The position numbers were made by a program, and so were the translations under genes. A stretch of DNA of 64,000 nucleotides, from contig JBNJGY010000001.1 in assembly GCA_051748045.1 (NCBI GenBank), positions 64,001-128,000 of the forward strand, read 5' to 3'. This DNA is from Thermotogota bacterium (GTDB taxonomy: Bacteria > Thermotogota > Thermotogae > Petrotogales > Petrotogaceae). How positions within the stretch are numbered: position 1 is the first letter of the stretch; every line of letters begins with the position of its first letter. This document shows, piece after piece, positions 19,983 through 34,661 of this stretch. The notes beneath the pieces were generated by a model that saw nothing but the letters and a program-made list of their open reading frames with translations, was not told the origin of the DNA and ran no database searches.

Positions 19983-20950
19983 GAATTATCTCTATTTAGT
20001 TCTATGTGTTTTTTCATAATTCTTACTGCGTTTGTGGCTGCACCAACTCTAACATTATTTGCCATTACCCAAATTAAAAATGTTTTATCGTTTAATTGTC
20101 TTAACCTTGATACATAAGTCATTTTATCATCTTGAATTTCTAAAGGTGTAATTATTTCATCATCGTAAACTACATTTTCTGAATTTGCTATTAAATCACT
20201 TATTAATTGCAAGTTAGTACTTTTTGAAATTTTAAAAGTTATAGATTCAGAATGACCATAAACAACAGGTACCCTTACTGCTGTAGGAATAACTATTATT
20301 TCTTTATCTTCAAAGATTTTTGTTGTTTCATTCACCATTTTCATTTCTTCTGTAGTGAACCCATTTTCTTCGTAATCACCAATTTTTGGAATTATATTTC
20401 TATGAATTATCTTTTCAAAATGCTCTGGTTGATTACTTTCTTTTTCTTGATTAATCAATTCTTGAATACCTTTGTTTCCTGCTCCAGATACAGCTTGATA
20501 TGTAGAGACATTTATCTCTTCTATCTTTATCTGTTTTTGTACATTATTCAAAGCTAAAAGCATTTGAATAGTTGAACAATTAGGATTTGCTATTATTCCT
20601 TTATAACCTTTTATTTTATGACTGTTTATTTCAGGGATAATTAAAGGAATATCATTATCCATTCTAAAAGCAGAAGAATTATCAATAACAACACTTCCCG
20701 CCTTGGCTGCTATTTGTGCAAATTCTTTTGAAACATCTCCCCCAGCAGAAAATAATACATAATCATATTGGTCTTTTAATGATTCTTGTTTTAATTCTTC
20801 AACTTCAATTTCTTTATTCTGAAAGCTTATTAATTCACCTACACTTTTTTTACCTGCATAAAGATCTAAATGATCTATATCTAGTGAAGAAAGTTCATCT
20901 ATAATTTTTCTACCAACTTCTCCTGTTGCTCCTACCACTGCTACTTTCAT
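19979..20950 (-). CDS. asd: Aspartate-semialdehyde dehydrogenase
   Basis: VGATGEVG, IDNSSAFRM, ANPNCSTIQ, TYQAVSGAG, RVPVVYGH. Confidence 0.97.
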   Translation of the reverse strand: MKVAVVGATGEVGRKIIDELSSLDIDHLDLYAGKKSVGELISFQNKEIEVEELKQESLKDQYDYVLFSAGGDVSKEFAQIAAKAGSVVIDNSSAFRMDNDIPLIIPEINSHKIKGYKGIIANPNCSTIQMLLALNNVQKQIKIEEINVSTYQAVSGAGNKGIQELINQEKESNQPEHFEKIIHRNIIPKIGDYEENGFTTEEMKMVNETTKIFEDKEIIVIPTAVRVPVVYGHSESITFKISKSTNLQLISDLIANSENVVYDDEIITPLEIQDDKMTYVSRLRQLNDKTFLIWVMANNVRVGAATNAVRIMKKHIELNRDNS

Positions 20951-20997: not shown

Positions 20998-21021
20998 ATA
21001 ATAAATTCATTTATTATTATT

Positions 21022-21183
21022 TTGACGGCTCTCCACGTTAAACGTGACAGTAGTATAGATATTCACTATACTCCCGGAAAAGAGTTTTGAGTTTCTCTTT
21101 CCCTCGGCAACTTTACCTTTCACATATCTTCATAGCTTTCTCGAGCTCAAATATGTTACTCTTATCAGTCGCGCCTCCGTTCG
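21022..21183 (-). ncRNA. Lysine riboswitch (L-box)
   Basis: Minus strand reads ACGGAGGCGCG..AAGAGUA..GAAAGG..GCCGA..ACUGUCAC..GUGGAGAGCCGU, the conserved L-box core with a closing P1, directly upstream of the lysine operon. Confidence 0.95.
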
Positions 21184-21254
21184 TTACACTAACTATTTAC
21201 TTATATTCAAAATAACATTTCAAAATTAACTGATGATAAACTTTTTGTTAACAT

Positions 21255-23237
21255 TTAATCTTCAGGGATTATGAAAACTTGATTTGGATATATTAAATTT
21301 GGATTTTCTATATTATTTTTTTCAGCTATATCATTATAATTAACTCCATATATTCTTGATATTTTTAATAACCAATCACCAGATTTTACTGTATATTTTA
21401 AAATTATTTTTTCTGCAAGTTCCTTTATTTCTTCATATGTTAAAGGTACTCTGTTATCTATGGATAAATTCCCTTCTTTAAATATTTTTTCAGCTTTTAT
21501 TCTGTGAATTTTATTCCAGTTATTCCCAGTTATTTTCCAATTTTCATCTGTTTCGCTTTTTATTATTCCATTTTTATAATCAACAATATACTCTTCTATA
21601 AAATCTGTAATGTAGTAATCTTTAAATTTTTCTATGTCTTTTGAACTAGCTAAAAGATTTGGTAATTTGTCTGAAAAAATTTCACCTGAATTTGAAAATT
21701 CATTTTCTGCTCTTGCTGAATTAGTTGCCAATAAATATTTTTTATCATCTAAAATATTATTACTAGCTGAATCTGTTAAATTTTCTATTCTGTTACCAAA
21801 GTCTTTACTAATATTAATTTCAAAATTTAAACCCTTAAAAATATCATATAGTTTATGCGATTTATTAGTTCGGGTAATCGTTAAATGTTCTTTTTCGAAT
21901 TTGTTGTAAAATTCTACAGACCATTCAAGATACTCTTTTAATTGCTTACCCGTTAATTCAACTATGGATAAACTATTCTTTTCTGGATAAAATCTGTTTA
22001 TATATCTTTTTGAAATTTGGTTAGATAATTTGAGATTTTCTACATAAATAGGCGTTGAAGATATTTTCACTTCAGAATCAAATATTTTATTTGCATAATG
22101 AAGTTGAACTTCATTTATCAGGTCAGAAATTTTTGTTGGTTTTAAATGATATGAATCTATTTGGTCTATTTTTTTCTCTTCAAAAAAATCCCCATTAACT
22201 ACTTCTGCAATAATTGATTCTAATTCTTCTATAGATTCTTGATGGTATTCTCTAAATATATTCTCTATACTGTGAAGAGGGAGAATAACTCTATCATCAT
22301 TTTTTACTGGAATCTTTGTAAGTGTTGAATCATCAGTAATATTTGAACCTTCTTTTGTTAATTTATAATCAATTTGATATAAACTTTCAGTAGAATTATT
22401 TATTAAAAACTCTTTTTTAGAATCGTTAAATTTATTAGATATTATAAGTTTATTTTTTTGTTCTTCTTTATTTAATGAGATTAAGATGTCATTCTCTAAA
22501 TTATCTTTTGGATCTAATTTATTATAGAAAGTAATATTATTTAATGTTTCACTTGATCCTGGAGTTAAGAATTTTTCGCTATTTAGATTCAAATCATCTA
22601 TTTTTAAAACATCATTTTCTGATAATAACCATAAATCATATTTTAAATAGTCAAAAGCTTCAAGGAAAGAATCAACTGTTTTATTATTTTGTTTATCTAG
22701 AAAAGTATCTCCAATATTTAATAATATATCCACCTCATTAACTTTATCATCTATTATTTTAGCTAATTGAGAAAAACTACCATCATAATCTTTTTTATCA
22801 TAATCATAATCATATGTTGTGAAATCACCATTAATGTTAGAAGTAATATATAATTTAAAAGAAACATCTATTTCTTCTATTTCTTTATGTGTGTTTTTAT
22901 CTATTTTTTCATTACTTGTGCTATTTTTAGTAATTAGAATATCGGCATTTGTTTCTATCAAATCAATATTTTCTTCATCAGTAGAATTATTCTCTTGATT
23001 TTCATTTTGACCATCACTTTCACTTAAAAGCAAATTTGAAGTTGAATCAGGAGTTATTTCAATTGAATCACCTGGAACAAAATCATCTTCATATATTGTT
23101 TGGGAATTATTTGAATCTTCAATATTATAATTCTGATCAACTTTTTCATCATTATTACCTAAAAATATAAATATCAGGGAAATAATGAGCATCAAAATTA
23201 TAATAAATACTCCCCATATAATATTTTTTTTATTCAT
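21255..23237 (-). CDS. Membrane-anchored 5'-nucleotidase/2',3'-cyclic phosphodiesterase-like protein with C-terminal LysM; catalytic domain degenerate
   Basis: N-terminal TM, acidic linker, ELTGKQLKEYLEWS and GNRIENL (5'-nucleotidase C domain), YTVKSGDWLLKIS...NPNLIYPNQ LysM. Confidence 0.75.
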   Translation of the reverse strand: MNKKNIIWGVFIIILMLIISLIFIFLGNNDEKVDQNYNIEDSNNSQTIYEDDFVPGDSIEITPDSTSNLLLSESDGQNENQENNSTDEENIDLIETNADILITKNSTSNEKIDKNTHKEIEEIDVSFKLYITSNINGDFTTYDYDYDKKDYDGSFSQLAKIIDDKVNEVDILLNIGDTFLDKQNNKTVDSFLEAFDYLKYDLWLLSENDVLKIDDLNLNSEKFLTPGSSETLNNITFYNKLDPKDNLENDILISLNKEEQKNKLIISNKFNDSKKEFLINNSTESLYQIDYKLTKEGSNITDDSTLTKIPVKNDDRVILPLHSIENIFREYHQESIEELESIIAEVVNGDFFEEKKIDQIDSYHLKPTKISDLINEVQLHYANKIFDSEVKISSTPIYVENLKLSNQISKRYINRFYPEKNSLSIVELTGKQLKEYLEWSVEFYNKFEKEHLTITRTNKSHKLYDIFKGLNFEINISKDFGNRIENLTDSASNNILDDKKYLLATNSARAENEFSNSGEIFSDKLPNLLASSKDIEKFKDYYITDFIEEYIVDYKNGIIKSETDENWKITGNNWNKIHRIKAEKIFKEGNLSIDNRVPLTYEEIKELAEKIILKYTVKSGDWLLKISRIYGVNYNDIAEKNNIENPNLIYPNQVFIIPED

Positions 23238-23377: not shown

Positions 23378-24025
23378 ATGAATAGTTTTTTGGATGAAAG
23401 GCTAGAATTAACAAACGCTTGTAAAAAAATAGCAAATGATAATTTAGTAAAAGGTACTTGGGGTAATTTTTCAATAAAAGTTAAAGATAAAATAATAATA
23501 ACACCATCTGGTTATTCTTATGAACTGATGACTCCAAACGACCTAGTTATAATTAATATGAAAGGTAATATAATCGAAGGTGACAGAGTTCCTTCTTCTG
23601 AATGGATGATGCATTCAGAAATTTACCAAAAAAGACAAGATGTAAATATTATTCTACATACACATCCAACATATTCTTCAATCGCTTCTGTGTCTTTAAA
23701 TGAAATACCTTCTTTGATAGAGGACAGTGCTATGATTTTAGGACCAAAAATTAATGTAACTGAATATAAGTTACCTGGTTCAAAAGATTTAGCTGAGGAA
23801 ACAGCAAAAAAATTAGGAGAAAATAACGCTGTTATTATGAGAAATCACGGGTTAGTCACTGTAGGTAATTCTTTAAATGAAGTAATATCAGCAGCTCATA
23901 TTGTTGAAAAAAACGTTATGATTTATATCGAAGCAACAAAATTAGGTGGGAAAATTCATTATATCTCTGATAACGACCTAAAAATGCTTAGAGAAAAATA
24001 TTTTAAATCATATAGACAAAAATAA
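23378..24025 (+). CDS. Class II aldolase/adducin family protein (FucA-like)
   Basis: GTWGNFS, ITPSG, PSSEWMMH, HTHP, NHG; ATG 23378 after AGGAGG. Confidence 0.9.
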   Translation: MNSFLDERLELTNACKKIANDNLVKGTWGNFSIKVKDKIIITPSGYSYELMTPNDLVIINMKGNIIEGDRVPSSEWMMHSEIYQKRQDVNIILHTHPTYSSIASVSLNEIPSLIEDSAMILGPKINVTEYKLPGSKDLAEETAKKLGENNAVIMRNHGLVTVGNSLNEVISAAHIVEKNVMIYIEATKLGGKIHYISDNDLKMLREKYFKSYRQK

Positions 24026-24050
24026 CAAGGGGTATTAAGCCCCTTGTTTT
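24024..24050. terminator. Hairpin terminator between convergent genes
   Basis: AACAAGGGG-N7-CCCCTTGTT. Confidence 0.75.
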
Positions 24051-25825
24051 ATAAATTTGAATTGAGATAAGTATAAATCGTAATAATCGTTTCTCATTTC
24101 AATTAGTTCTTCATGAGTTCCCATTTCGCTAATTTTTCCATCTTTAATATAAATAATTCTGTCTACATCTCTAATGGTTGATAGTCTATGTGCAATTACA
24201 AAACTAGTTCTATTTTTTAGTAGTTTTTCGATTCCTAATTGTACCAATCTTTCAGTTTTTGTATCAATATTTGATGTAGCCTCATCTAAAATTAATATTT
24301 TGGGATCAGCTAATAATGCTCTTGCTAAAGATATTAACTGTCTTTGCCCAACAGACAACCTTGAGCCTCTTTCGTTTACTTCAGTCTCATAACCTTTTTC
24401 TAAACTCATCACGAAATCATGTAATCCTACGGTTTTAGAAGCTTTTATTATTTCTTCTTTTGTGGCATCTAATTTGCCGTATTTAATATTTTCATAAATA
24501 GTTGTAGAAAATAAAAATGTATCTTGTAGCATAATTCCCATATGGGTTCTCAAATTTTCCAAATCTATATCTCTTAAATCGTGACCATCTAAGAATATAC
24601 TACCTTGTGTGGGGTCATAAAACCTGGATATCAAATTTACCATAGTAGTCTTTCCAGCTCCTGTAGGACCTACAAATGCTATAGATTCACCTGGTTTAAC
24701 CTTCAAATTTATATTTTTTAGAACTTGAGTATCTTTATCATAACTAAAGCTAACATTTCTAAAATCTAATTCTCCATCTATGTTGTCTAATCTTTGTACA
24801 CCATTTTTGTTGTTTTCAACAACAGGTTTTATATCTAATATTTCAAATATTCTATCTGTAGCTGCAAAACTGGTTATTAAAACATTATAAAAGTTTGCTA
24901 TGTTCCAAATAGGTCTCCAAAATTTTGTTATATACCAAGTAAAAGCGAATATTTCTCCTATTGTAATTAAATTTTGACCTACAAGTCCAAAACTATACCA
25001 ATATATGGCTATTAACCCCAAACCATAGGATAGTTCAATAAGAGGTCCAAATTTATATTGTAGTCTTGCTGCATGAATAAAGGAATCGACAGCATTACCA
25101 ACATAACCTCTAAAATTATTTTTTGTAAAACTCTCTGCTGTAAAAGATTGTACTACTTTTATACCTGAGAACGTTTCATGGGTATAGGCATTTAAATTAG
25201 ATCTCTTTTTTCTATAGTTCTCCCATCGTTTTCTCCCTATTATCTGTATTACAAAAAGTGCCAAAAAAAGTGGGGGCATAACCATCATTGTTATACCAGT
25301 TAGTTGTGCGTTCATTGAAACCATAATAATTACAACAGATATAACTGTAATCACTTCAGGAATTAAACTTGTAACTAAAGAGTTAAAAAATTGCTGTAAA
25401 GAGTTGATATCTCCCATAATCCTTGCTAAAATTTTTCCTACAGGTCTTTCATCAAAAAAATTGAAAGATAATTTTTGAATATGATTGTAAAGATCATGCC
25501 TTATGTTTACAACTATATCGTTACTAATCTCTCCCATTTTGATCATTCTCATTTTTGAGACCCACATAGCAAATAAATTAACCAGTAACATCCCTATACT
25601 CAACCAAACTAATCCTATAACATTTTCTTGGACTATATAATTATCTATTGCCAATTTCAACATAAAAGGATTTAAAAGTTCAACACCAATAACAAAAAGC
25701 ATCATCATGGATACCAAAAATGTTTTTAATTTATATGGTTTTAAATAAGATATCAATATTTTAATTATCTCAATATTTGATTTTCTCTTTGTATTTTCAT
25801 CTTGTTTTGTAGCGTTTAGACTCAT
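24035..25825 (-). CDS. Heterodimeric ABC exporter subunit (TMD-NBD), TM288/BmrD-like
   Basis: TM domain, GPTGAGKT, non-canonical LSVGQ signature, canonical ILDEATS, AHR. Confidence 0.93.
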   Translation of the reverse strand: MSLNATKQDENTKRKSNIEIIKILISYLKPYKLKTFLVSMMMLFVIGVELLNPFMLKLAIDNYIVQENVIGLVWLSIGMLLVNLFAMWVSKMRMIKMGEISNDIVVNIRHDLYNHIQKLSFNFFDERPVGKILARIMGDINSLQQFFNSLVTSLIPEVITVISVVIIMVSMNAQLTGITMMVMPPLFLALFVIQIIGRKRWENYRKKRSNLNAYTHETFSGIKVVQSFTAESFTKNNFRGYVGNAVDSFIHAARLQYKFGPLIELSYGLGLIAIYWYSFGLVGQNLITIGEIFAFTWYITKFWRPIWNIANFYNVLITSFAATDRIFEILDIKPVVENNKNGVQRLDNIDGELDFRNVSFSYDKDTQVLKNINLKVKPGESIAFVGPTGAGKTTMVNLISRFYDPTQGSIFLDGHDLRDIDLENLRTHMGIMLQDTFLFSTTIYENIKYGKLDATKEEIIKASKTVGLHDFVMSLEKGYETEVNERGSRLSVGQRQLISLARALLADPKILILDEATSNIDTKTERLVQLGIEKLLKNRTSFVIAHRLSTIRDVDRIIYIKDGKISEMGTHEELIEMRNDYYDLYLSQFKFIKQGA

Positions 25826-25826
25826 A

Positions 25827-27563
25827 TTAGATCACCTCGTTTGCAAAAAAGCTAATATCTTCAAAATCTTTGAATTGATCTTTGTAAATTTTATAATATT
25901 CTCCTTTTTTGTCTACTAATTCATCATGTGTTCCCATTTCAAAAATTTCCCCATCTTTTAAATATATTATTTTATCTGCATTTTTAACTGCTGAAATTCT
26001 GTGTGCTATTATAAAAGTTGTTATATTTTTGTTGCTATCTTTAATATTTTTTAGTAGTTCATATTCTGTATCCATATCCAATGCACTTGTAGCATCATCC
26101 AAGACAATCATTCTCGATTTTTTGGCTAAGGCCCTTGCTATTGTCATTCTTTGTTTTTGACCACCAGATAACCCAACGCCTCTTTCTCCAATTAAAGTGT
26201 TGTATTTTTTATTCATTTTTTCTACAAACTCTTCCACACAGGAAATTTTTGCAACTTCTACTAATTCTTTTTGGCTTAATTCATTATTTCCCATCTTTAT
26301 ATTTTCCTCTACAGTTTCTGAGAAAAGAAAGCTGTCTTGAAAAATGTATGAAATATTATCTCTAAGGTTTTTTAAATTGATTGATCTTATATCATTTCCG
26401 TCAATTAATATATTCCCTTTTGTAACGTCATAAAATCTACCAATTAAATTAACTAATGATGTTTTACCTGAACCTGTTTCTCCCATTATGGCGACTGTTT
26501 CACCAGGGTTAATTTCTAAATTAATCTTTTTTAAAACATAATCTTCATCATATTTTAGGTAAACATCATGAAAAATAATTTTCCCTTTTTCTATTTTTTC
26601 ACCTAAGTCATTTAATATTTCTGGTTTATTCGACATTATTCTATCAATTTTTTTTGCTGATGTTGTTCCAAGAGATATCATATTTGTTAATAACCCCATC
26701 ATTCTCATTGGCCAAATCAACATCCATACGTATTGAGTAAAAGCTACTAAAACACCTAAAGATATTTGTTCATTAATGACAAAAGCCCCGCCAAAAACAA
26801 CTAACAAAACTATTGTCATATTACCCAGAAATTCCATCACCGAGAATAATGATCCAAATATTTTTGTCCTTTCTATGTTCAGTTCATAATTTTTTTTATT
26901 CATATCTAAAAATTTTAATGTTTCATGTTTTTCTCTTGCAAAAGCTTTCACCAATCTAACTCCAGCTATATTTTCTTGAGCTGTAGTATTTAACTTTGCA
27001 GCATGATCACTTATTTTATCGTAAACTTTAGATACTTTTTGTCTTAATTTCACTGCAACATAAGCTATTAAAGGCATTCCAGCCAGTGTTATCAAAGCTA
27101 ACTTCCAGTTTAATGAAAATAATATAAAAGAAGCCACAGAAAAATATATGATATTTTCAACAAAAACAGCTAATGCAAATCCGAGCATATCCCAAACATT
27201 TTCCGCATCTTGTCCTATTCTAGACATTAATTCTCCAGTATTTTGTTTGTCAAAGAATTTAAAATCCATCTTATGTATATGTTTAAACAAATCATTTCTA
27301 ATATCTCCTAAAATTTGAGTAGCTATATAGTCATAAGTAAATTCTTTAAAATATCCAGAAAAAACTCTAACTACTGTCATTATAGCTATACCTATTAACA
27401 CAGTTTTTAAAGATTCTACACTATTATTACCAAGAGCTTCATCTATAAACATTTTACTCAACATTGGCCAAAACATATCTGAAATGATAAAGGCCATCAT
27501 AGATAAAACAGCGACAAATAACAACAATTTATAATTTTTATAATATTTTAGTATTTTTAACAC
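25827..27563 (-). CDS. Heterodimeric ABC exporter subunit (TMD-NBD), TM287/BmrC-like
   Basis: TM domain, GETGSGKT, LSGGQ, degenerate Walker B VLDDATS; GTG start with GGGGTG RBS. Confidence 0.93.
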   Translation of the reverse strand: MLKILKYYKNYKLLLFVAVLSMMAFIISDMFWPMLSKMFIDEALGNNSVESLKTVLIGIAIMTVVRVFSGYFKEFTYDYIATQILGDIRNDLFKHIHKMDFKFFDKQNTGELMSRIGQDAENVWDMLGFALAVFVENIIYFSVASFILFSLNWKLALITLAGMPLIAYVAVKLRQKVSKVYDKISDHAAKLNTTAQENIAGVRLVKAFAREKHETLKFLDMNKKNYELNIERTKIFGSLFSVMEFLGNMTIVLLVVFGGAFVINEQISLGVLVAFTQYVWMLIWPMRMMGLLTNMISLGTTSAKKIDRIMSNKPEILNDLGEKIEKGKIIFHDVYLKYDEDYVLKKINLEINPGETVAIMGETGSGKTSLVNLIGRFYDVTKGNILIDGNDIRSINLKNLRDNISYIFQDSFLFSETVEENIKMGNNELSQKELVEVAKISCVEEFVEKMNKKYNTLIGERGVGLSGGQKQRMTIARALAKKSRMIVLDDATSALDMDTEYELLKNIKDSNKNITTFIIAHRISAVKNADKIIYLKDGEIFEMGTHDELVDKKGEYYKIYKDQFKDFEDISFFANEVI

Positions 27564-27607
27564 TTTCCATCACCCCGATTTTTCTCTTCTATTTTTTATC
27601 CACCAAT

Positions 27608-27685
27608 CTATATTAAAGATATGATTTCGTAATACTCTTTTTTATTTTTTACCTTCATATTATTATTTTTTTGATTATTTTTCAT
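27608..27685 (-). CDS. Putative 25-aa micropeptide MKNNQKNNNMKVKNKKEYYEIISLI
   Basis: Manual translation; GGGGTGG RBS just upstream of ATG; C-terminus paralogous to the 27726-27806 ORF. Confidence 0.6.
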   Translation of the reverse strand: MKNNQKNNNMKVKNKKEYYEIISLI

Positions 27686-27725
27686 AATTACCACCCCATG
27701 TTTTAGCTTCGTCTGATAGTTTGGA

Positions 27726-27806
27726 TTAAATTAAAGAAACAACTTCAAAATATGATTTTTTCTCTTCTTGTTTAGCTTGATTGTTTTGTATGTTTTTCTT
27801 TTTCAT
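27726..27806 (-). CDS. Putative 26-aa micropeptide MKKKNIQNNQAKQEEKKSYFEVVSLI
   Basis: Manual translation; AAGGGGGTGA RBS; C-terminus paralogous to the 27608-27685 ORF. Confidence 0.6.
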   Translation of the reverse strand: MKKKNIQNNQAKQEEKKSYFEVVSLI

Positions 27807-27832
27807 GATTTCACCCCCTTTGTGACATAATT

Positions 27833-27868
27833 CTAACTAACAAAACTCATCTCTAATTTTTTTGACAT
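27833..27868 (-). CDS. Putative 11-aa micro-ORF MSKKLEMSFVS
   Basis: Strong GGAGGTG RBS 7 nt before ATG, immediately after the second terminator. Confidence 0.35.
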   Translation of the reverse strand: MSKKLEMSFVS

Positions 27869-27888
27869 TTTATTACACCTCCAATTTA

Positions 27889-27922
27889 TAAAAATAAAGC
27901 CATGGCTTTATTAGCCATGGCT
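27889..27922 (-). terminator. Second attenuator-type terminator in the exporter leader
   Basis: AGCCATGGCT-N5-AGCCATGGCT stem followed by TTATTTTT on the minus strand. Confidence 0.75.
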
Positions 27923-27993
27923 GATTTAGTTTGTTTTATCATTCGATACTATTATCCTACCTTTATAAAACATAGAAAATAATAATAATCTAT

Positions 27994-28025
27994 AAAACAA
28001 AAGCCATGGCTGGATAGCCATGGCT
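27994..28025 (-). terminator. First attenuator terminator in the exporter leader
   Basis: AGCCATGGCT-ATCC-AGCCATGGCT stem followed by TTTGTTTT on the minus strand; mutually exclusive with an upstream antiterminator. Confidence 0.8.
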
Positions 28026-28042
28026 CGAATATATAGAAATAA

Positions 28043-28159
28043 CTAGATTATTTCTTTTCTACTTCGAGGCAAAGCTATCCCATGATTTGATTTTAATATA
28101 CCGCACATATTAAAACTAACTCTTAATTTGCCGGTGTTTACAACTGCTAAATTAATCAT
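28043..28159 (-). CDS. Putative 38-aa attenuator leader peptide MINLAVVNTGKLRVSFNMCGILKSNHGIALPRSRKEII
   Basis: AAGGAGG RBS 8 nt before ATG; the ORF 3' end overlaps the antiterminator arm. Confidence 0.65.
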   Translation of the reverse strand: MINLAVVNTGKLRVSFNMCGILKSNHGIALPRSRKEII

Positions 28160-28223
28160 GATATTGCCTCCTTTTTTAAAATATTTTATCACTTACAATT
28201 TACACTGTTTATATTTCTTGTTT

Positions 28224-28250
28224 TATACGTTATAGTTACTATAGAGTAAA
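28224..28250 (-). promoter_or_regulatory. MerR-like dyad operator or promoter upstream of the exporter leader
   Basis: TATAGT-N-ACTATA perfect dyad (28231-28243) with flanking TAC/GTA; minus strand TTTACT-19 bp-TAAAAC. Confidence 0.5.
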
Positions 28251-28274
28251 GTATAACGGATAATTTTTATCTAT

Positions 28275-29660: not shown

Positions 29661-30890
29661 ATGAAGATAGGTAAGTTTGCAAAAAAAAATAATTTAACTG
29701 TTGACACTATAAGATATTATGTAGAACTAGGACTTCTATTACCTGAAAAGGTTAATAATCAATTTTCTTTTGATGAGAAATGCCAAAATGATTTAGAAGA
29801 AATAATCAATTTAAAAAATATGAGGTTTTCAATTTCTCAAATTCAAAGTATTTTTTCAACAAGAAGATTTACTAAATTAATAAATGATGAGGAACTAAAT
29901 TATTATATATCTTTTTTTGAAAATAAAAAAAATGAACTTATAAAAGAAAAAAAAGAAATCGATAAATCAATTGATAAAATTGACAAAAAGATTGAAGATA
30001 TTAAAAATAGTTATGAAAAAAGAAACGTAGATTTGGGTATTCCTGTTTCTTTTTTAAGTAATTTATCTTGTCCTAAATGTAATAAATCTTTGAATTTAGT
30101 TAAAGGAAATATAGAAAATAATCAAATTTTTAATGGAGAACTCAAATGTAAGTGCGGATATGAAGCAAAAATTGAAGATGGAATTTTAATCACAGAGAAC
30201 GCAGAAACATATATGCCTGAAAACTTAGAAAAAGATAACCCAGGAAATATTTTTGTCAAAAAAACTAATATGTCTTTTGCGAATTTAATATATAAAGGTA
30301 TGTCTTGGATTTATAAAAGATTAAACCAAATAGATTTAAAAAATATAAATATTCTAGAAATTGGAACTGGTTCAGGTTTTTTCTTAAAAAAATTGATTGA
30401 GTCATTAGATGATACTTCTGTTTACATAGCAGTTGATAACAACCTAGAGTTTTTAAAATCTGCAAAAAAGTATTTACAAGCTATCGGTAAAGAAGCCAAC
30501 ATAGTGTTCATAGCTTGTGACTTTAAAGAAATCCCTTTACAAAATGATACTTGTGATATTTTACTAGATGTATATGGGACAGCTGACGACTCTTTGAATA
30601 AAGATTTTTACCCTATAAGAGATACTAAACACCTTTTAAAAAACAAAGGCTTTTGGTATGGAACATATATACATTTCAATGACAATTCAAAAACCTTGAC
30701 TACAATAAGCAGAGAAGCTAGAGAAAAATATAAGTCAGATTTCATAAGAAAATCTTTCGCAAGCAATGGATTTGAAGAAATAGAATCTAGTTTTTTAGGG
30801 AAAGCTACAAAATATGGAGAATCAGAGCCTTTTATTGTTGATGGAGACATAGTTAATCATTGGGGATTTGTTTGTAGAAAATATATATAA
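29661..30890 (+). CDS. MerR-family transcriptional regulator fused to a Zn-ribbon and class I methyltransferase-like domain
   Basis: MKIGKFAK..TIRYY..GLL HTH, coiled coil, CPKC...CKC, ILEIGTGSG. Confidence 0.88.
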   Translation: MKIGKFAKKNNLTVDTIRYYVELGLLLPEKVNNQFSFDEKCQNDLEEIINLKNMRFSISQIQSIFSTRRFTKLINDEELNYYISFFENKKNELIKEKKEIDKSIDKIDKKIEDIKNSYEKRNVDLGIPVSFLSNLSCPKCNKSLNLVKGNIENNQIFNGELKCKCGYEAKIEDGILITENAETYMPENLEKDNPGNIFVKKTNMSFANLIYKGMSWIYKRLNQIDLKNINILEIGTGSGFFLKKLIESLDDTSVYIAVDNNLEFLKSAKKYLQAIGKEANIVFIACDFKEIPLQNDTCDILLDVYGTADDSLNKDFYPIRDTKHLLKNKGFWYGTYIHFNDNSKTLTTISREAREKYKSDFIRKSFASNGFEEIESSFLGKATKYGESEPFIVDGDIVNHWGFVCRKYI

Positions 30891-30918: not shown

Positions 30919-31617
30919 ATGTATGATAATAATGATGAGTTTAAAAATATGATACGTAAAATCTTGAAAGAAAATCCAGAGCTAAAAAATTTTAACTTAG
31001 ATTTTATAAAGGATGTCAATCCAGAAGATATTGATGAAATTATAGAAAAATTAAAAGTAGCCTCTCAAAAATTTACAGAAGCAGAATATTCTGTAAAAGA
31101 TGATGTCGATAAAACTTTATCTTTTGAGGCGAAGGATCTTTCAATCAATTATGAAACCTATTTGAAAACTATTATGATCTTTCCCTTTGCTTTAGCAGTA
31201 GGAGAAGATATTTTAGAAGACGTTCCAACAGAAGGAGAATTACATGGTGAGTTTTTTGGTAAAAAAGTTGATTTTGAATATGATAATATTTATGAATTAA
31301 TATCTATAAAGAAAAATGTGGCAATGAAAATTGGCAAACTTATACGTAAAAATTATCCTGATTTTTTGGAGTTCAGAGAAGATATAAAATCTTATTTAGA
31401 AAAAATAACTAATTCATATTTAAAAGCATTTGGTTTTGAAGACAGTTTTGAAATATCTGATATTAGAGAGTTTAATATGTTAGTTAGATTAAAGCCTAAA
31501 GATTATGAAAAAATAGAAGATTTTTATGAGAATCATTTGGATTCTGAAGAAATTGAAAAATTTAAAATATTCAAAGCCTATTTAATCACTGAATTTTCTA
31601 TAGCTGTAATTGATTGA
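30919..31617 (+). CDS. Hypothetical protein
   Basis: 232-aa ORF with GAGGAG RBS; no motif recognised. Confidence 0.7.
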   Translation: MYDNNDEFKNMIRKILKENPELKNFNLDFIKDVNPEDIDEIIEKLKVASQKFTEAEYSVKDDVDKTLSFEAKDLSINYETYLKTIMIFPFALAVGEDILEDVPTEGELHGEFFGKKVDFEYDNIYELISIKKNVAMKIGKLIRKNYPDFLEFREDIKSYLEKITNSYLKAFGFEDSFEISDIREFNMLVRLKPKDYEKIEDFYENHLDSEEIEKFKIFKAYLITEFSIAVID

Positions 31618-32773: not shown

Positions 32774-33991
32774 TTATTTATATATTCTCTTACATGTTTT
32801 CCATCCATAAATCAATCTAAGACTTTCATAAAAAGGTATATCTATTATGAAATCAAAATAACTTCTATATTTTCTTGAAAATCCATCTAATATTTTATTT
32901 AATTCTTCTGAATAATCAGGACCTTTTAACCTTATTCTATAACCACTATCTTCATTAAAGAATCCGTTTGTTTTTAATCCTTTTTTTACTAAATTTACTT
33001 TCGTTTTGAATAAAATAATATCTAAATTCCCAAATTTTTCTATTAATTTCTTATATATAAAGTTTGCTCCCTTGTAATTTTTCATGTTAAAAAATTTCAA
33101 AAAATTATTTTCAAAATTATCTGCAACTCCTACCTTGACTTTATTTTGATCAACATAAGAAAATATTTTATTAGAAAACAAACAATAGTTTTCTATTGAA
33201 TAGCTGCTTTTATTTGAACTATAAGCATGAATACATTTGGCACAAGGAAATTCATCTTTTTTAACTGCTGATAATGCTGAAGCTGATTTGTCAACATCTC
33301 TAGTAAATTGAGAATTATAATAGTTGAAAATAGATATTGTTTTCTTTGCTTTTCCTTCTAAAAAAGATTTTGATACCATAGATTCTACTTCTTTGAAATT
33401 TTTATTATATAAATTAATAGCCATATTTACATATGAATAATTTGATAGCTCTCCAGCCATTTTTATAAATTTATATGCATAATCAAATTTATTATCTTTA
33501 ATAAATAATAACCCCATTAAAAAATGAGAGTATGGATTATTCTTTTTTTTCTCCACTAAACTTCTAGCAAATTTAAGTTTATCATTATCGTCTCTAAAAA
33601 TTTTTAATACACCTAAGTTAAACAATGATTCAATATCATTTCCAGATAAGAAAAAGTTCTCAGCCTTTTCAAAGTCATTTCTTAAAAGGTGCATCAAACC
33701 AAATTGATTATTATATTCACCTGGTGATTTTGATGATAACCTATTTTCAAAATACAAAGACAATTTCTCATCAGAAATATTTACATCGTAAATAACAAAA
33801 TCCATCCAAGTTTTTAATTTATTAATAGGTATATTCAATGAATTACTTTCAAGTTCATAATTGTAAATTGTTGTTTTCTTTTTCTTCTTTTCTTCTTTTG
33901 ATTCGTAGTTTATTCCCTTTTTGCTCAAATCTTTTTTAAATTGATCTTTTAATTTATAAATGTTATTTAATTTATCATTTTTATCAGACAT
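32774..33991 (-). CDS. Hypothetical protein with TPR-like repeats
   Basis: Helical motifs (FNLGVL, HFLMGLL..AYKFI); probable ATG at 33991. Confidence 0.6.
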   Translation of the reverse strand: MSDKNDKLNNIYKLKDQFKKDLSKKGINYESKEEKKKKKTTIYNYELESNSLNIPINKLKTWMDFVIYDVNISDEKLSLYFENRLSSKSPGEYNNQFGLMHLLRNDFEKAENFFLSGNDIESLFNLGVLKIFRDDNDKLKFARSLVEKKKNNPYSHFLMGLLFIKDNKFDYAYKFIKMAGELSNYSYVNMAINLYNKNFKEVESMVSKSFLEGKAKKTISIFNYYNSQFTRDVDKSASALSAVKKDEFPCAKCIHAYSSNKSSYSIENYCLFSNKIFSYVDQNKVKVGVADNFENNFLKFFNMKNYKGANFIYKKLIEKFGNLDIILFKTKVNLVKKGLKTNGFFNEDSGYRIRLKGPDYSEELNKILDGFSRKYRSYFDFIIDIPFYESLRLIYGWKTCKRIYK

Positions 33992-34661
33992 TTTTTTCCA
34001 CCTTTCTTGAAAGATTAAAGCTATAATATTGATTTTTACCAACGATTATATGATCGTTGAGTTTTATCCCCAATATTTTACCCGCTTCTTTAATCTTATC
34101 TGTTAGTTCTATGTCCTGAATACTTGGTGAACTATCTCCTGAAGGATGATTATGTACTAGTATAAAAGAAACTGCATTTAATTTTATAGCGCTTTTAAAA
34201 ATATCTCTTGGATGTGCTATAGAGCTATTTGCAGTACCCTCACTAATATTTTCTTTATGAATTACGTTTAACTTTGAATCAAGTAAATAAACCCTAACAA
34301 ATTCTTTTTCAAAATAGATCATATCTTGAGAGATATTGTAGACATCTTCTGGTGATTTGATTTTTTGATATGTAGTTTTTAATTTCTGAAGATGAAATCT
34401 TTTCCCCATTTCCAATGCTGCCTTTAAATTAATTGCTGCGACTTTTCCTACACCCTTTATTTTGATTAATTCATTTAAATCTAATTTTTGAAGCCCTACA
34501 AAATCTTTATGCTTATCTATAATTTCCTCTGAAAGCTCAAAAACATTTTTATCTTTAATACCTCTCCTTAAAATAATAGCGAGTAATTCTTTATCTTCAA
34601 GAGTTTCTTCTCCATAAATCAAGAGTTTTTCTCTTGGAAGCAGCTCTTTTTCCAAATCCAT
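33984..34661 (-). CDS. radC: RadC family JAB-domain protein
   Basis: PREKL, ELLAIIL, HhH, HPRDIF, HNHPSGDxxPSxxD, DHII. Confidence 0.95.
   Translation of the reverse strand: MDLEKELLPREKLLIYGEETLEDKELLAIILRRGIKDKNVFELSEEIIDKHKDFVGLQKLDLNELIKIKGVGKVAAINLKAALEMGKRFHLQKLKTTYQKIKSPEDVYNISQDMIYFEKEFVRVYLLDSKLNVIHKENISEGTANSSIAHPRDIFKSAIKLNAVSFILVHNHPSGDSSPSIQDIELTDKIKEAGKILGIKLNDHIIVGKNQYYSFNLSRKVEKNV

Follow-up and report, generated by a model that had tools for sequence, protein, structure and literature searches.

We report here that two unannotated small open reading frames (ORFs) lying directly upstream of an ATP-binding cassette (ABC) exporter operon in a Thermotogota genome are genuine and conserved and most likely form part of a multi-layered control region that senses translation, rather than genes for exported peptides or pump subunits. 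The DNA analyzed is a 64-kb stretch of contig JBNJGY010000001.1 (hereafter the window, numbered from its first letter), in which the exporter genes ABC1 and ABC2 are preceded by three upstream ORFs (uORFs) of 11, 26 and 25 codons, designated uORF11, uORF26 and uORF25 (Table 1). The two longer ones encode the paralogous micropeptides with which we are chiefly concerned. As far as can be judged from sequence, the three uORFs are the distal part of a ~640-nt leader whose proximal part is a ribosome-dependent double-terminator attenuator. The initial annotation of this DNA had placed all three ORFs, which lie on the minus strand, exactly to the base, and did not include the promoter-like site, the leader ORF L1, the antiterminator and the two intrinsic terminators T1 and T2 that lie just upstream in the same leader. 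Its picture of a free-standing peptide/exporter module is not supported in that form: the ORFs are the distal part of an attenuator leader, and the attenuator is common to orthologous loci in Clostridium. On comparison of these loci, the regulatory leader is conserved but contains a slot whose filling is optional, and the micropeptides are what occupies it in this lineage.

Each of the three uORFs has a ribosome-binding site of its own, as originally described: a G[GA]GGTG Shine-Dalgarno (SD) hexamer lies 5-7 nt ahead of the start codon in every case. The window has 30 copies of the hexamer; ORFs of at least 60 amino acids (aa) follow 19 of them, and the three uORFs account for 3 of the remaining 11. 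The gaps from each stop codon to the next start along the series uORF11, uORF26, uORF25 and ABC1 are 26, 40 and 44 nt. The proposed paralogy and shared C-terminus of the two micropeptides are equally well founded, with the motif [YF][YF]E[VIL][VIL]S[LIV][IVL]-stop having only two matches in the six-frame translation of the window, namely uORF26 and uORF25; a looser C-terminal motif, defined post hoc, has four matches among the 2979 stop-to-stop segments that reach 12 aa or more, two of them being the micropeptides. Over the last 10 codons (33 nt including the stop) the paralogues are identical at 22 nt and differ at 11, with Y, E, S, L, I and the stop kept in both and exchanges of V for I and F for Y. 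A 70% repeat between the uORF11 region and the ABC1 start is judged to be a chance similarity of AT-rich sequence.

Orthologous loci were collected in a genome scan with the ABC1 membrane domain, which confirmed 19 loci among 132 pattern matches. One of these, L001, comes from an uncultured member of the Thermotogota and has an ABC1 that is 94% identical to that of the window, and the other 18 come from Clostridia at 42-54% identity; the set left out the 57-58% identical relatives in Tepiditoga, Oceanotoga and Marinitoga. L001 keeps L1 (MNNFAVVITGKLRVVFNEFGISKLNHGIALPRSRSEII), uORF11 (MRKKLEMSFVN), uORF26 (MKKKNIQNNQTKQEEKKSYFEVVSLI) and uORF25 (MKNNQKKSNNINKKDKKEYFEIISLI), all of them open and SD-led, and the only indel is an in-frame 3-nt insertion in its uORF25 relative to the window copy. 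The synonymous divergence (pS) between the two genomes is ~0.5 in neighboring genes (AdoK 0.56, NIF3 0.54, ABC1 0.49, aldolase 0.50), and the identities of the individual leader parts (Table 1) imply that the whole distal leader is constrained, the ORFs and more. Within uORF26, 3 changes fall on 12.7 synonymous sites and 1 on 65.3 non-synonymous sites (p = 0.015), corresponding to a non-synonymous divergence (pN) of 0.015 and a pS of 0.24. When the last 10 codons of uORF26 and uORF25 are pooled, 4 synonymous changes stand against 1 non-synonymous change over 12 and 48 sites (p = 0.0067), which supports at the codon level the purifying selection that had been suggested for the C-terminus. The N-terminal half of uORF25 drifts freely, with 7 non-synonymous changes and the indel, and its C-terminal 10 codons are conserved. 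The SD sequences, the intact frames and the bias towards synonymous change speak for translation of the ORFs and for the importance of their final ~10 residues.

The module upstream of the uORFs has what we would describe, by analogy with bmrB and vmlR and from modeled folds, as the geometry of a ribosome-dependent attenuator: an SD-led short ORF, a terminator before ABC1, and a mutually exclusive antiterminator that overlaps the ORF. The 10-mer AGCCATGGCT, self-complementary and with an NcoI site in it, makes up all four arms of T1 and T2, and the window has exactly 4 copies of it where 0.7 would be expected with at most one mismatch. Because this 10-mer is self-complementary, any terminator arm can pair with any other, and this interchangeability of the arms gives rise to three competing folds. 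The terminated fold (-49.3 kcal/mol, z-score -4.1) contains T1, with the SD and start codon of L1 paired to the 5' segment of the antiterminator. The antiterminator fold has a predicted energy of -26.7 kcal/mol (z = -5.2), and none of 200 shuffled sequences was as stable. In an extended antiterminated fold of 216 nt (-67.9 kcal/mol, z = -7.5) the freed 3' arm and U tract of T1 pair with the pre-T2 segment and the 5' half of T2, including its 5' arm, which disables T1 and T2 at once. An exhaustive profile search with two L1 sequences recovered one homologue (P0212, 38 aa, E = 8e-10), which shares the GIALPR core and the SEII end; the remaining matches were to proteins of low complexity or with repeats. 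The T1-T2 spacer, at 54% identity to L001, is flanked by blocks of 97-100% identity, and may contain a second, fast-evolving promoter or simply be unconstrained.

A leader ORF followed by T1 and T2 also precedes the pump in 13 of the 18 Clostridium loci (L003-L012, L014, L015 and L017). The Clostridium leader ORF is SD-led and 40 aa long (45, 39 and 39 aa in L003, L004 and L007; the L014 copy reads MINKKMYANANVTSNCITFSNIFMSKIIYDSSTLMKIIFS), and the stems of both Clostridium terminators have a CCATGG core in common with the terminators of the window. The gene upstream of the Clostridium leaders encodes a Mur ligase, whereas that in the window encodes NIF3, indicating that leader and pump move together. 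In every one of the 12 aligned Clostridium leaders the 3' portion of the ORF retains its antiterminator pairing with the 5' arm of T1, through G-U, G-C and A-U exchanges, and compensatory pairs are present in Clostridium T1. A covariance model built from 12 Clostridium leaders, with the window, L001 and L005 left out, recovers the held-out L005 (E = 1.5e-40) and L001 (E = 3.3e-4), and its top match in the window spans 27889-28094 (-) over the full length of the model (26.9 bits, E = 0.0044), these E-values being rough because calibration was shortened. Weaker matches on the reverse strand at the same places reflect the palindromic nature of the stems. Among the other Clostridium loci, L013 (4886-4962) and L016 (4826-4949) retain only the spacer hairpin and T2, directly after the Mur ligase gene, and judging from what is left look like losses of the leader ORF and T1; different small ORFs or terminators are present in L002, L018 and L019.

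The occupancy of the slot after T2 is variable. It is empty in 5 of the 13 Clostridium leaders (L007, L009, L011, L012 and L015), where the pump starts within ~45-75 nt, and contains one ORF in three others (L004, L010 and L014) and two tandem ORFs in the remaining five (L003, L005, L006, L008 and L017). These slot ORFs are ~59 aa long (for example MYKSKNLTKSKSNLGGITMGFAFFKNRDLLSRYRRKPLYLCNNCLNNALYYYVILYKRI in L004) and belong to a family of 40 proteins, for which the organism names, where given, are all Clostridium and the source names are all 'hypothetical protein'. No significant similarity was detected between this family and the 25-26-aa micropeptides, although both occupy the same position, are found duplicated in tandem, begin with a K/N/S-rich stretch and end in Y-F-x-aliphatic. 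A motif defined post hoc, Y[FY]x[IV][IVL][SNT] within the last 11 residues, is present in both micropeptides and in 6 of 12 59-aa ORFs, against a background of ~0.1% of segments. That the slot holds 0, 1 or 2 lineage-specific ORFs identifies it as an optional add-on and not as part of the pump, and the 5 empty slots together with the 8 filled by an unrelated family argue against an obligatory substrate or subunit. Three roles had been offered for the micropeptides at the outset; that of a translation-coupled sensor is the one we favor. Two further features of the Clostridium slot were observed. The 59-aa ORFs (e.g. L014 4686-4865) have two in-frame SD-led starts that would give 59-aa and 41-aa forms, and in L014 (4926-4960) the stretch that separates the 59-aa ORF from the ABC start contains a perfect AU-rich hairpin of 14 bp that has no U tract.

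The explanation that we favor, and hold with moderate confidence, is that the micropeptides are cis-acting leader or arrest-type uORFs that form a second tier of control behind the L1 attenuator. The first tier is modeled on sequence, folding and comparison. Transcription from the promoter-like site would reach L1, at which point three mutually exclusive RNA structures are possible. If L1 were not translated, its SD and AUG would pair with the antiterminator 5' arm, T1 and T2 would form, and the transcript would end. Rapid translation of L1 to its stop would have the same outcome, with the ribosome covering the antiterminator by sitting in its loop. A ribosome stalled inside L1, on the other hand, would permit the antiterminator (28080-28012) to form and the freed T1 3' arm to pair with the T2 5' arm, and with both terminators thereby disabled RNA polymerase would read through. 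In the second tier, the read-through RNA would carry uORF11, uORF26 and uORF25, each with a strong SD, and the nascent Y-[FY]-E-[VI]-[VI]-S-L-I-stop sequence could slow or arrest the ribosome in cis at or near termination. Ribosome occupancy of the leader would then set the amount of ABC1, through protection of the mRNA or through the opening of weak hairpins at the next start. The duplication that gave uORF26 and uORF25 would place two sensors in series, and the signal sensed might be a translation inhibitor or another stress. Conservation of the C-terminal residues right before the stop would be in keeping with a hallmark of arrest peptides such as MsrDL. All three classes of ORF also have an [EKQ]-[IV]-[IV] sequence in the last 6 residues (3/3 L1 sequences, 4/4 micropeptides and 12/13 Clostridium 40-aa ORFs, against a background of 1.2-2% of stop-to-stop segments), although this motif was chosen post hoc.

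A number of observations weigh against this explanation, and most of them concern the output step of the second tier. No intrinsic terminator was found between T2 and ABC1, and the minus strand from 27898 to 25297 is without a terminator-like site. The 361-nt distal leader folds no better than its shuffled versions, 66 of 100 of which reach its stability (z = +0.42). A hairpin just past the uORF11 stop, covering the start codon of uORF26 and some of its SD, has an energy of -4.2 kcal/mol at 37 C (z = -1.7), and a hairpin over the ABC1 SD and start one of -5.0 kcal/mol at 37 C (z = -2.4) that falls to -2.7 kcal/mol in L001; a single compensatory pair distinguishes the window from L001, and it is tied to the difference between the GTG and ATG starts of ABC1. 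The latter hairpin sits 37 alignment columns beyond the uORF25 stop, which is beyond the reach of a terminating ribosome. With no terminator, no significant fold and only weak hairpins, the output step proposed for the uORFs is inferred. Short-range re-initiation, of the short-distance kind discussed in passages of PMC4833913, was rejected because judged by those passages the gaps of 26-44 nt are too long. The substitution statistics for the micropeptides rest on 4-5 changes, because a single orthologous genome carries the peptides. Synonymous sites within the uORFs change less than those of their neighbors (pS 0.19-0.24 against ~0.5) and the inter-ORF spacers are 78-92% identical to L001, and these values together imply that some constraint acts at the RNA level too. 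Finally, the codon test on Clostridium ORFs of equal length gave a pooled pN/pS of 1.01 for the 40-aa ORFs (8 of 11) and 0.62 for the 59-aa ORFs (9 of 12), and thus no clear coding signal, with selection at the peptide level weak or absent.

Related candidate mechanisms were also considered for the distal leader. A role of the micropeptides as leader peptides of a transcription attenuator was rejected, given that no terminator or antiterminator lies downstream of them or overlaps them and that the distal fold has z = +0.42. The same fold value and the weakness of the hairpins leave an RNA switch in the distal leader unsupported. At the gathering thresholds of Rfam 15 the leader has no match, the sole match in the window being a lysine riboswitch elsewhere, and in L001-L013 only tRNAs were recognized at these thresholds; a permissive Rfam search of 27500-28260 returned sub-threshold hairpins only (mir-77, 24.7 bits against a threshold of 83; ncr952, 16.5 against 100).

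An alternative that we regard as somewhat unlikely is that translation of the uORFs matters but the peptides do not. The uORFs would then keep ribosomes on a long AU-rich leader, as a 5' stabilizer, an anti-polarity device or a coupling chain, and the likeness of the C-termini would be a by-product of RNA constraint. Such an explanation would account for the conservation of synonymous sites and inter-ORF spacers relative to a pS of ~0.5, and is consistent with the hairpin after the uORF11 stop that covers the uORF26 start codon and part of the SD, with a consensus fold in which the SLI codons can base-pair to purine-rich stretches of the leader, and with the pN/pS of ~1 of the Clostridium 40-aa leader ORFs. 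It is difficult to reconcile with the enrichment of motif substitutions at synonymous sites (p = 0.0067) and with paralogues that keep their amino acids, or close equivalents, while differing at 11 of 33 nt, and the helices that it invokes are predicted to be weak and are not significant.

We consider it unlikely that the arrest interpretation can be extended to a more ambitious form, in which Y-[FY]-E-[VI]-[VI]-S-L-I-stop would define a new class of arrest or sensor sequence in series behind the attenuator and the [EKQ]-[IV]-[IV] endings of L1 and of the Clostridium ORFs would represent a termination-arrest family that moved between Thermotogota and Clostridia with pumps of the TM287/288 type, or in which the peptides, once released, would work in trans upon the pump or the leader.

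Trans-acting small proteins co-expressed with the pump, serving as regulators of the transporter or leader or as a ligand recognized by its C-terminus, seem to us a doubtful prospect. The constraint at the peptide level would suit such a role, with uORF26 conserved over its full length (pN 0.015), as would co-transcription of the ORFs with the exporter, and tandem duplication could increase the dose. Against this, 5 of 13 Clostridium leaders have no slot ORF and 8 have an unrelated family, the N-terminal half of uORF25 is drifting (7 non-synonymous changes and the indel), and the micropeptides have no membrane-spanning segment. Their longest hydrophobic run, YFEVVSLI, comprises ~8 residues and is too short for a membrane helix. 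A small membrane subunit of the AcrZ or KdpF kind was accordingly rejected on the criterion of a single transmembrane helix. Neither the micropeptides nor L1 nor the Clostridium ORFs have an accepted match in Pfam or NCBIfam; the sole entry listed, MAG0920_fam, falls short at E = 0.013 and 14.9 bits, the cut-off being 43. There is nevertheless a precedent for trans action in peTrpL, a leader peptide described in passages of PMC7298713 as acting in trans on a multidrug efflux operon.

It is improbable that the ORFs are a neutral remnant, left by a recent tandem duplication of leader DNA, open by chance and without a function of their own. They are short, and an open frame of 26 codons is not rare in DNA of ~28% GC (~10% by a rough estimate); they are known from two genomes only, and leaders without such ORFs exist. 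A neutral origin is at odds, however, with a region that is 86-96% identical between genomes ~50% apart at synonymous sites while the adjoining T1-T2 spacer is 54% identical, with three strong SDs at correct spacing, and with changes that are biased to synonymous sites and include a sole, in-frame indel. Least probable is a leaderless two-peptide bacteriocin or exported signal with a dedicated ABC exporter: although tandem, paralogous, lysine-rich, leaderless peptides do adjoin an ABC exporter without a peptidase domain, and ABC-exported leaderless two-peptide bacteriocins are known according to passages of PMC8657885, polar residues (N, Q, K, E) predominate in the peptides, which have only ~8 terminal hydrophobic residues, immunity and accessory genes are missing among neighbors that are instead NIF3, adenosine kinase and aldolase, the exporter group is very widespread with relatives that are without these peptides, and the ORFs lie inside a 5' leader downstream of an attenuator.

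Two classes of peptide cassette were ruled out on the gene content and peptide sequences. The locus is not a class II bacteriocin cassette with a peptidase-containing ABC transporter, as had been recognized from the beginning, since the Pfam scan found no C39 peptidase domain in ABC1 or ABC2 and there is no double-glycine leader (GG, GA or GS) in the micropeptide sequences. Nor are the micropeptides precursors of RiPPs, peptides that ribosomes make and that are modified post-translationally, since they contain no Cys and no maturase (radical SAM, LanM, YcaO and the like) is recognizable by Pfam among the nine neighboring ORFs scanned.

The exporter itself is, going by its sequence motifs, of the asymmetric heterodimeric TM287/288/BmrCD type with one degenerate ATP site. 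The two half-transporter genes are adjacent, ABC1 has a non-catalytic Walker B motif, and ABC2 has the consensus Glu and a deviant signature (Table 1). ABC_membrane and ABC_tran are the sole Pfam domains of both proteins. The top full-length bacterial structure matches are TM287 for ABC1 (E = 2e-95) and TM288 for ABC2 (E = 3e-119), followed by TmrAB, Sav1866 and BmrC/BmrD, listed in the PDB as YheI (E = 5e-87 to ABC1) and YheH (E = 6e-96 to ABC2). The orthologous group is very large, with 7995 proteins scored at E <= 0.001 in a protein search. In this search two ABC1 relatives are 94% and 88% identical, those from Tepiditoga, Oceanotoga and Marinitoga are 54-58% identical, and many from Clostridium are ~53% identical. 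ABC2 has a pS of 0.26 relative to L001, about half that of ABC1 and the other neighbors, which could be due to recombination between lineages or to extra constraint on the ABC2 sequence.

Of the nine neighboring ORFs submitted to Pfam, seven belong to ordinary families (NIF3, adenosine kinase, MerR-methyltransferase, aldolases and 5'-nucleotidase) and two (30919-31617 and 32774-34042) have no Pfam family. The MerR-methyltransferase gene at 29661-30890 (+) encodes a 409-aa protein in which a MerR-type helix-turn-helix is fused to an S-adenosylmethionine-dependent methyltransferase domain; it lies ~1.5 kb upstream of the exporter leader and is divergent from the adenosine kinase-NIF3 pair. Multidrug pumps are often under the control of MerR regulators. 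Downstream of the exporter operon, a gene at 21255-23237 (-) encodes a 660-aa protein with a 5'-nucleotidase C-terminal domain and a C-terminal LysM, and the lysine riboswitch aptamer (Rfam RF00168, 104.7 bits) is located at 21018-21187 (-), upstream of a minus-strand gene cluster that starts at 20950.

Table 1. Elements of the exporter leader and operon in the window, in order of transcription, with nucleotide identity to the L001 locus.
Feature	Position (strand)	Characteristics and basis	Identity to L001
Promoter-like site	28183..28211 (-)	TAAACA-17 nt-TAAAAT with TG extension (extended -10); consensus scan	27/29 nt
L1, 38-aa leader ORF	28043..28159 (-)	MINLAVVNTGKLRVSFNMCGILKSNHGIALPRSRKEII; SD AAGGAGG; aligns with 40-aa Clostridium leader ORFs	
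Antiterminator helix, overlapping L1 and T1	28012..28080 (-)	5' arm 28080-28061 = L1 codons 27-33; 3' arm 28031-28012, including T1 5' arm	
Antiterminator 5' arm (L1 3' end)			40/42 nt
L1 stop to T1			16/16 nt
T1, intrinsic terminator	28026-28001; with U tract 27992..28026 (-)	two AGCCATGGCT arms; terminator scan	35/35 nt (T1 + U tract)
T1-T2 spacer, hypervariable	27940..27991 (-)	neutral level, close to synonymous-site divergence	28/52 nt (54%)
Pre-T2 segment			15/17 nt
T2, intrinsic terminator	27922-27898; with pre-T2 segment 27890..27939 (-)	two AGCCATGGCT arms + U tract; terminator scan	32/33 nt (T2 + U tract)
uORF11, 11 aa	27833..27868 (-)	MSKKLEMSFVS; SD GGAGGTG	32/36 nt
uORF26, 26 aa	27726..27806 (-)	MKKKNIQNNQAKQEEKKSYFEVVSLI; SD GGGGGTGA	43/45 nt (first half); 34/36 nt (second half)
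uORF25, 25 aa	27608..27685 (-)	MKNNQKNNNMKVKNKKEYYEIISLI; SD GGGGTGG	36/42 nt plus indel (first 14 codons); 33/36 nt (remaining codons + stop)
Three inter-ORF spacers			24/26, 35/40, 32/41 nt
ABC1, TM287-like half-transporter	25827..27563 (-)	degenerate Walker B (IVLDD); GTG start	
ABC2, TM288-like half-transporter	24035..25825 (-)	Walker B consensus (ILILDE); without canonical LSGGQ signature	
Operon-end terminator	24024..24048 (-)	terminator scan	

TM287/288, TmrAB and BmrCD are among the structurally best-studied heterodimeric ABC exporters. To our knowledge, little has been established for most of them about the natural substrates or the signals that induce them. A leader consisting of an ORF, an antiterminator and two terminators that is found in two phyla points to translation stress as an input, and would extend bmrBCD, the sole case studied experimentally, to Thermotogota and Clostridia. 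Word searches of the literature, which can miss papers and had supplements outside their scope, found bmrBCD as the studied heterodimeric ABC exporter under leader-peptide control, and nothing on Thermotogota leaders, on this double-terminator design or on tandem uORFs behind it. From the lineage-specific tandem uORFs that lie behind the attenuator it would seem that leaders of this type acquire additional modules for sensing through insertion and duplication. Should the C-terminal motif arrest ribosomes, it would be a new arrest sequence from a deep-branching phylum; should it not, the locus would still be a clean example of conserved small ORFs overlooked by annotation. If the arrest-class or trans-acting readings were true, they would offer a handle on the natural inducers or substrates of this exporter family.

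Among the closest known systems are the leaders of Clostridium (tagluense/estertheticum group), in which the 40-aa ORF is the counterpart of L1 and the two terminators are those of T1 and T2 in the window. Their 59-aa ORFs fill the same slot as the micropeptides and are often in tandem like them, but unlike them are confined to Clostridium. Another is bmrB-bmrCD of Bacillus subtilis, in which, according to passages of PMC4191407, a 53-aa leader ORF is combined with a terminator, an antiterminator and an anti-antiterminator, and induction of bmrCD by ribosome-targeting drugs needs translation of bmrB. Both bmrBCD (bmrB is also named yheJ) and the window combine a homologous heterodimeric pump with one degenerate ATP site, a short leader ORF and alternative structures. 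The window differs in having two serial terminators made from one self-complementary 10-mer, a leader ORF of 38 rather than 53 aa, and three extra SD-led ORFs between terminators and pump, none of which are described in those passages of PMC4191407.

Layered transcription and translation attenuation through a uORF is described for vmlR in passages of PMC9226507, and the MsrDL leader peptide is reported in passages of PMC10314930 to block both peptide-bond formation and release-factor accommodation. These passages resemble our proposal for the window in that uORF stalling selects between anti-antiterminator, antiterminator and terminator and that more than one layer of control operates (PMC9226507, PMC10314930), and MsrDL is a leader peptide that proves its final residues able to block termination, as we propose for the micropeptides (PMC10314930). 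Unlike the window, vmlR and msrD encode soluble ABC-F ribosome-protection factors and not exporters, they have a single uORF, and the motifs are unrelated.

The erm attenuators are similar to the window in placing tandem short leader ORFs before one gene, with critical residues near the C-terminal or arrest site. The ermA gene has an attenuator of this type with two leader peptides. Induction of ermB likewise depends on two leader peptides, ermBL and ermBL2, according to passages of PMC8274638. In erm leaders well-defined hairpins hide the SD of the resistance gene, whereas the window has only a weak hairpin of -5 kcal/mol at the ABC1 start. The E-[VI]-[VI]-S portion of the micropeptide C-terminus may resemble the arrest motifs of ErmCL and ErmAL1. 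In relation to these systems, ribosome-mediated attenuation of a BmrCD-like pump is the known element of the window, and lineage-specific tandem uORFs behind the attenuator are the new one.

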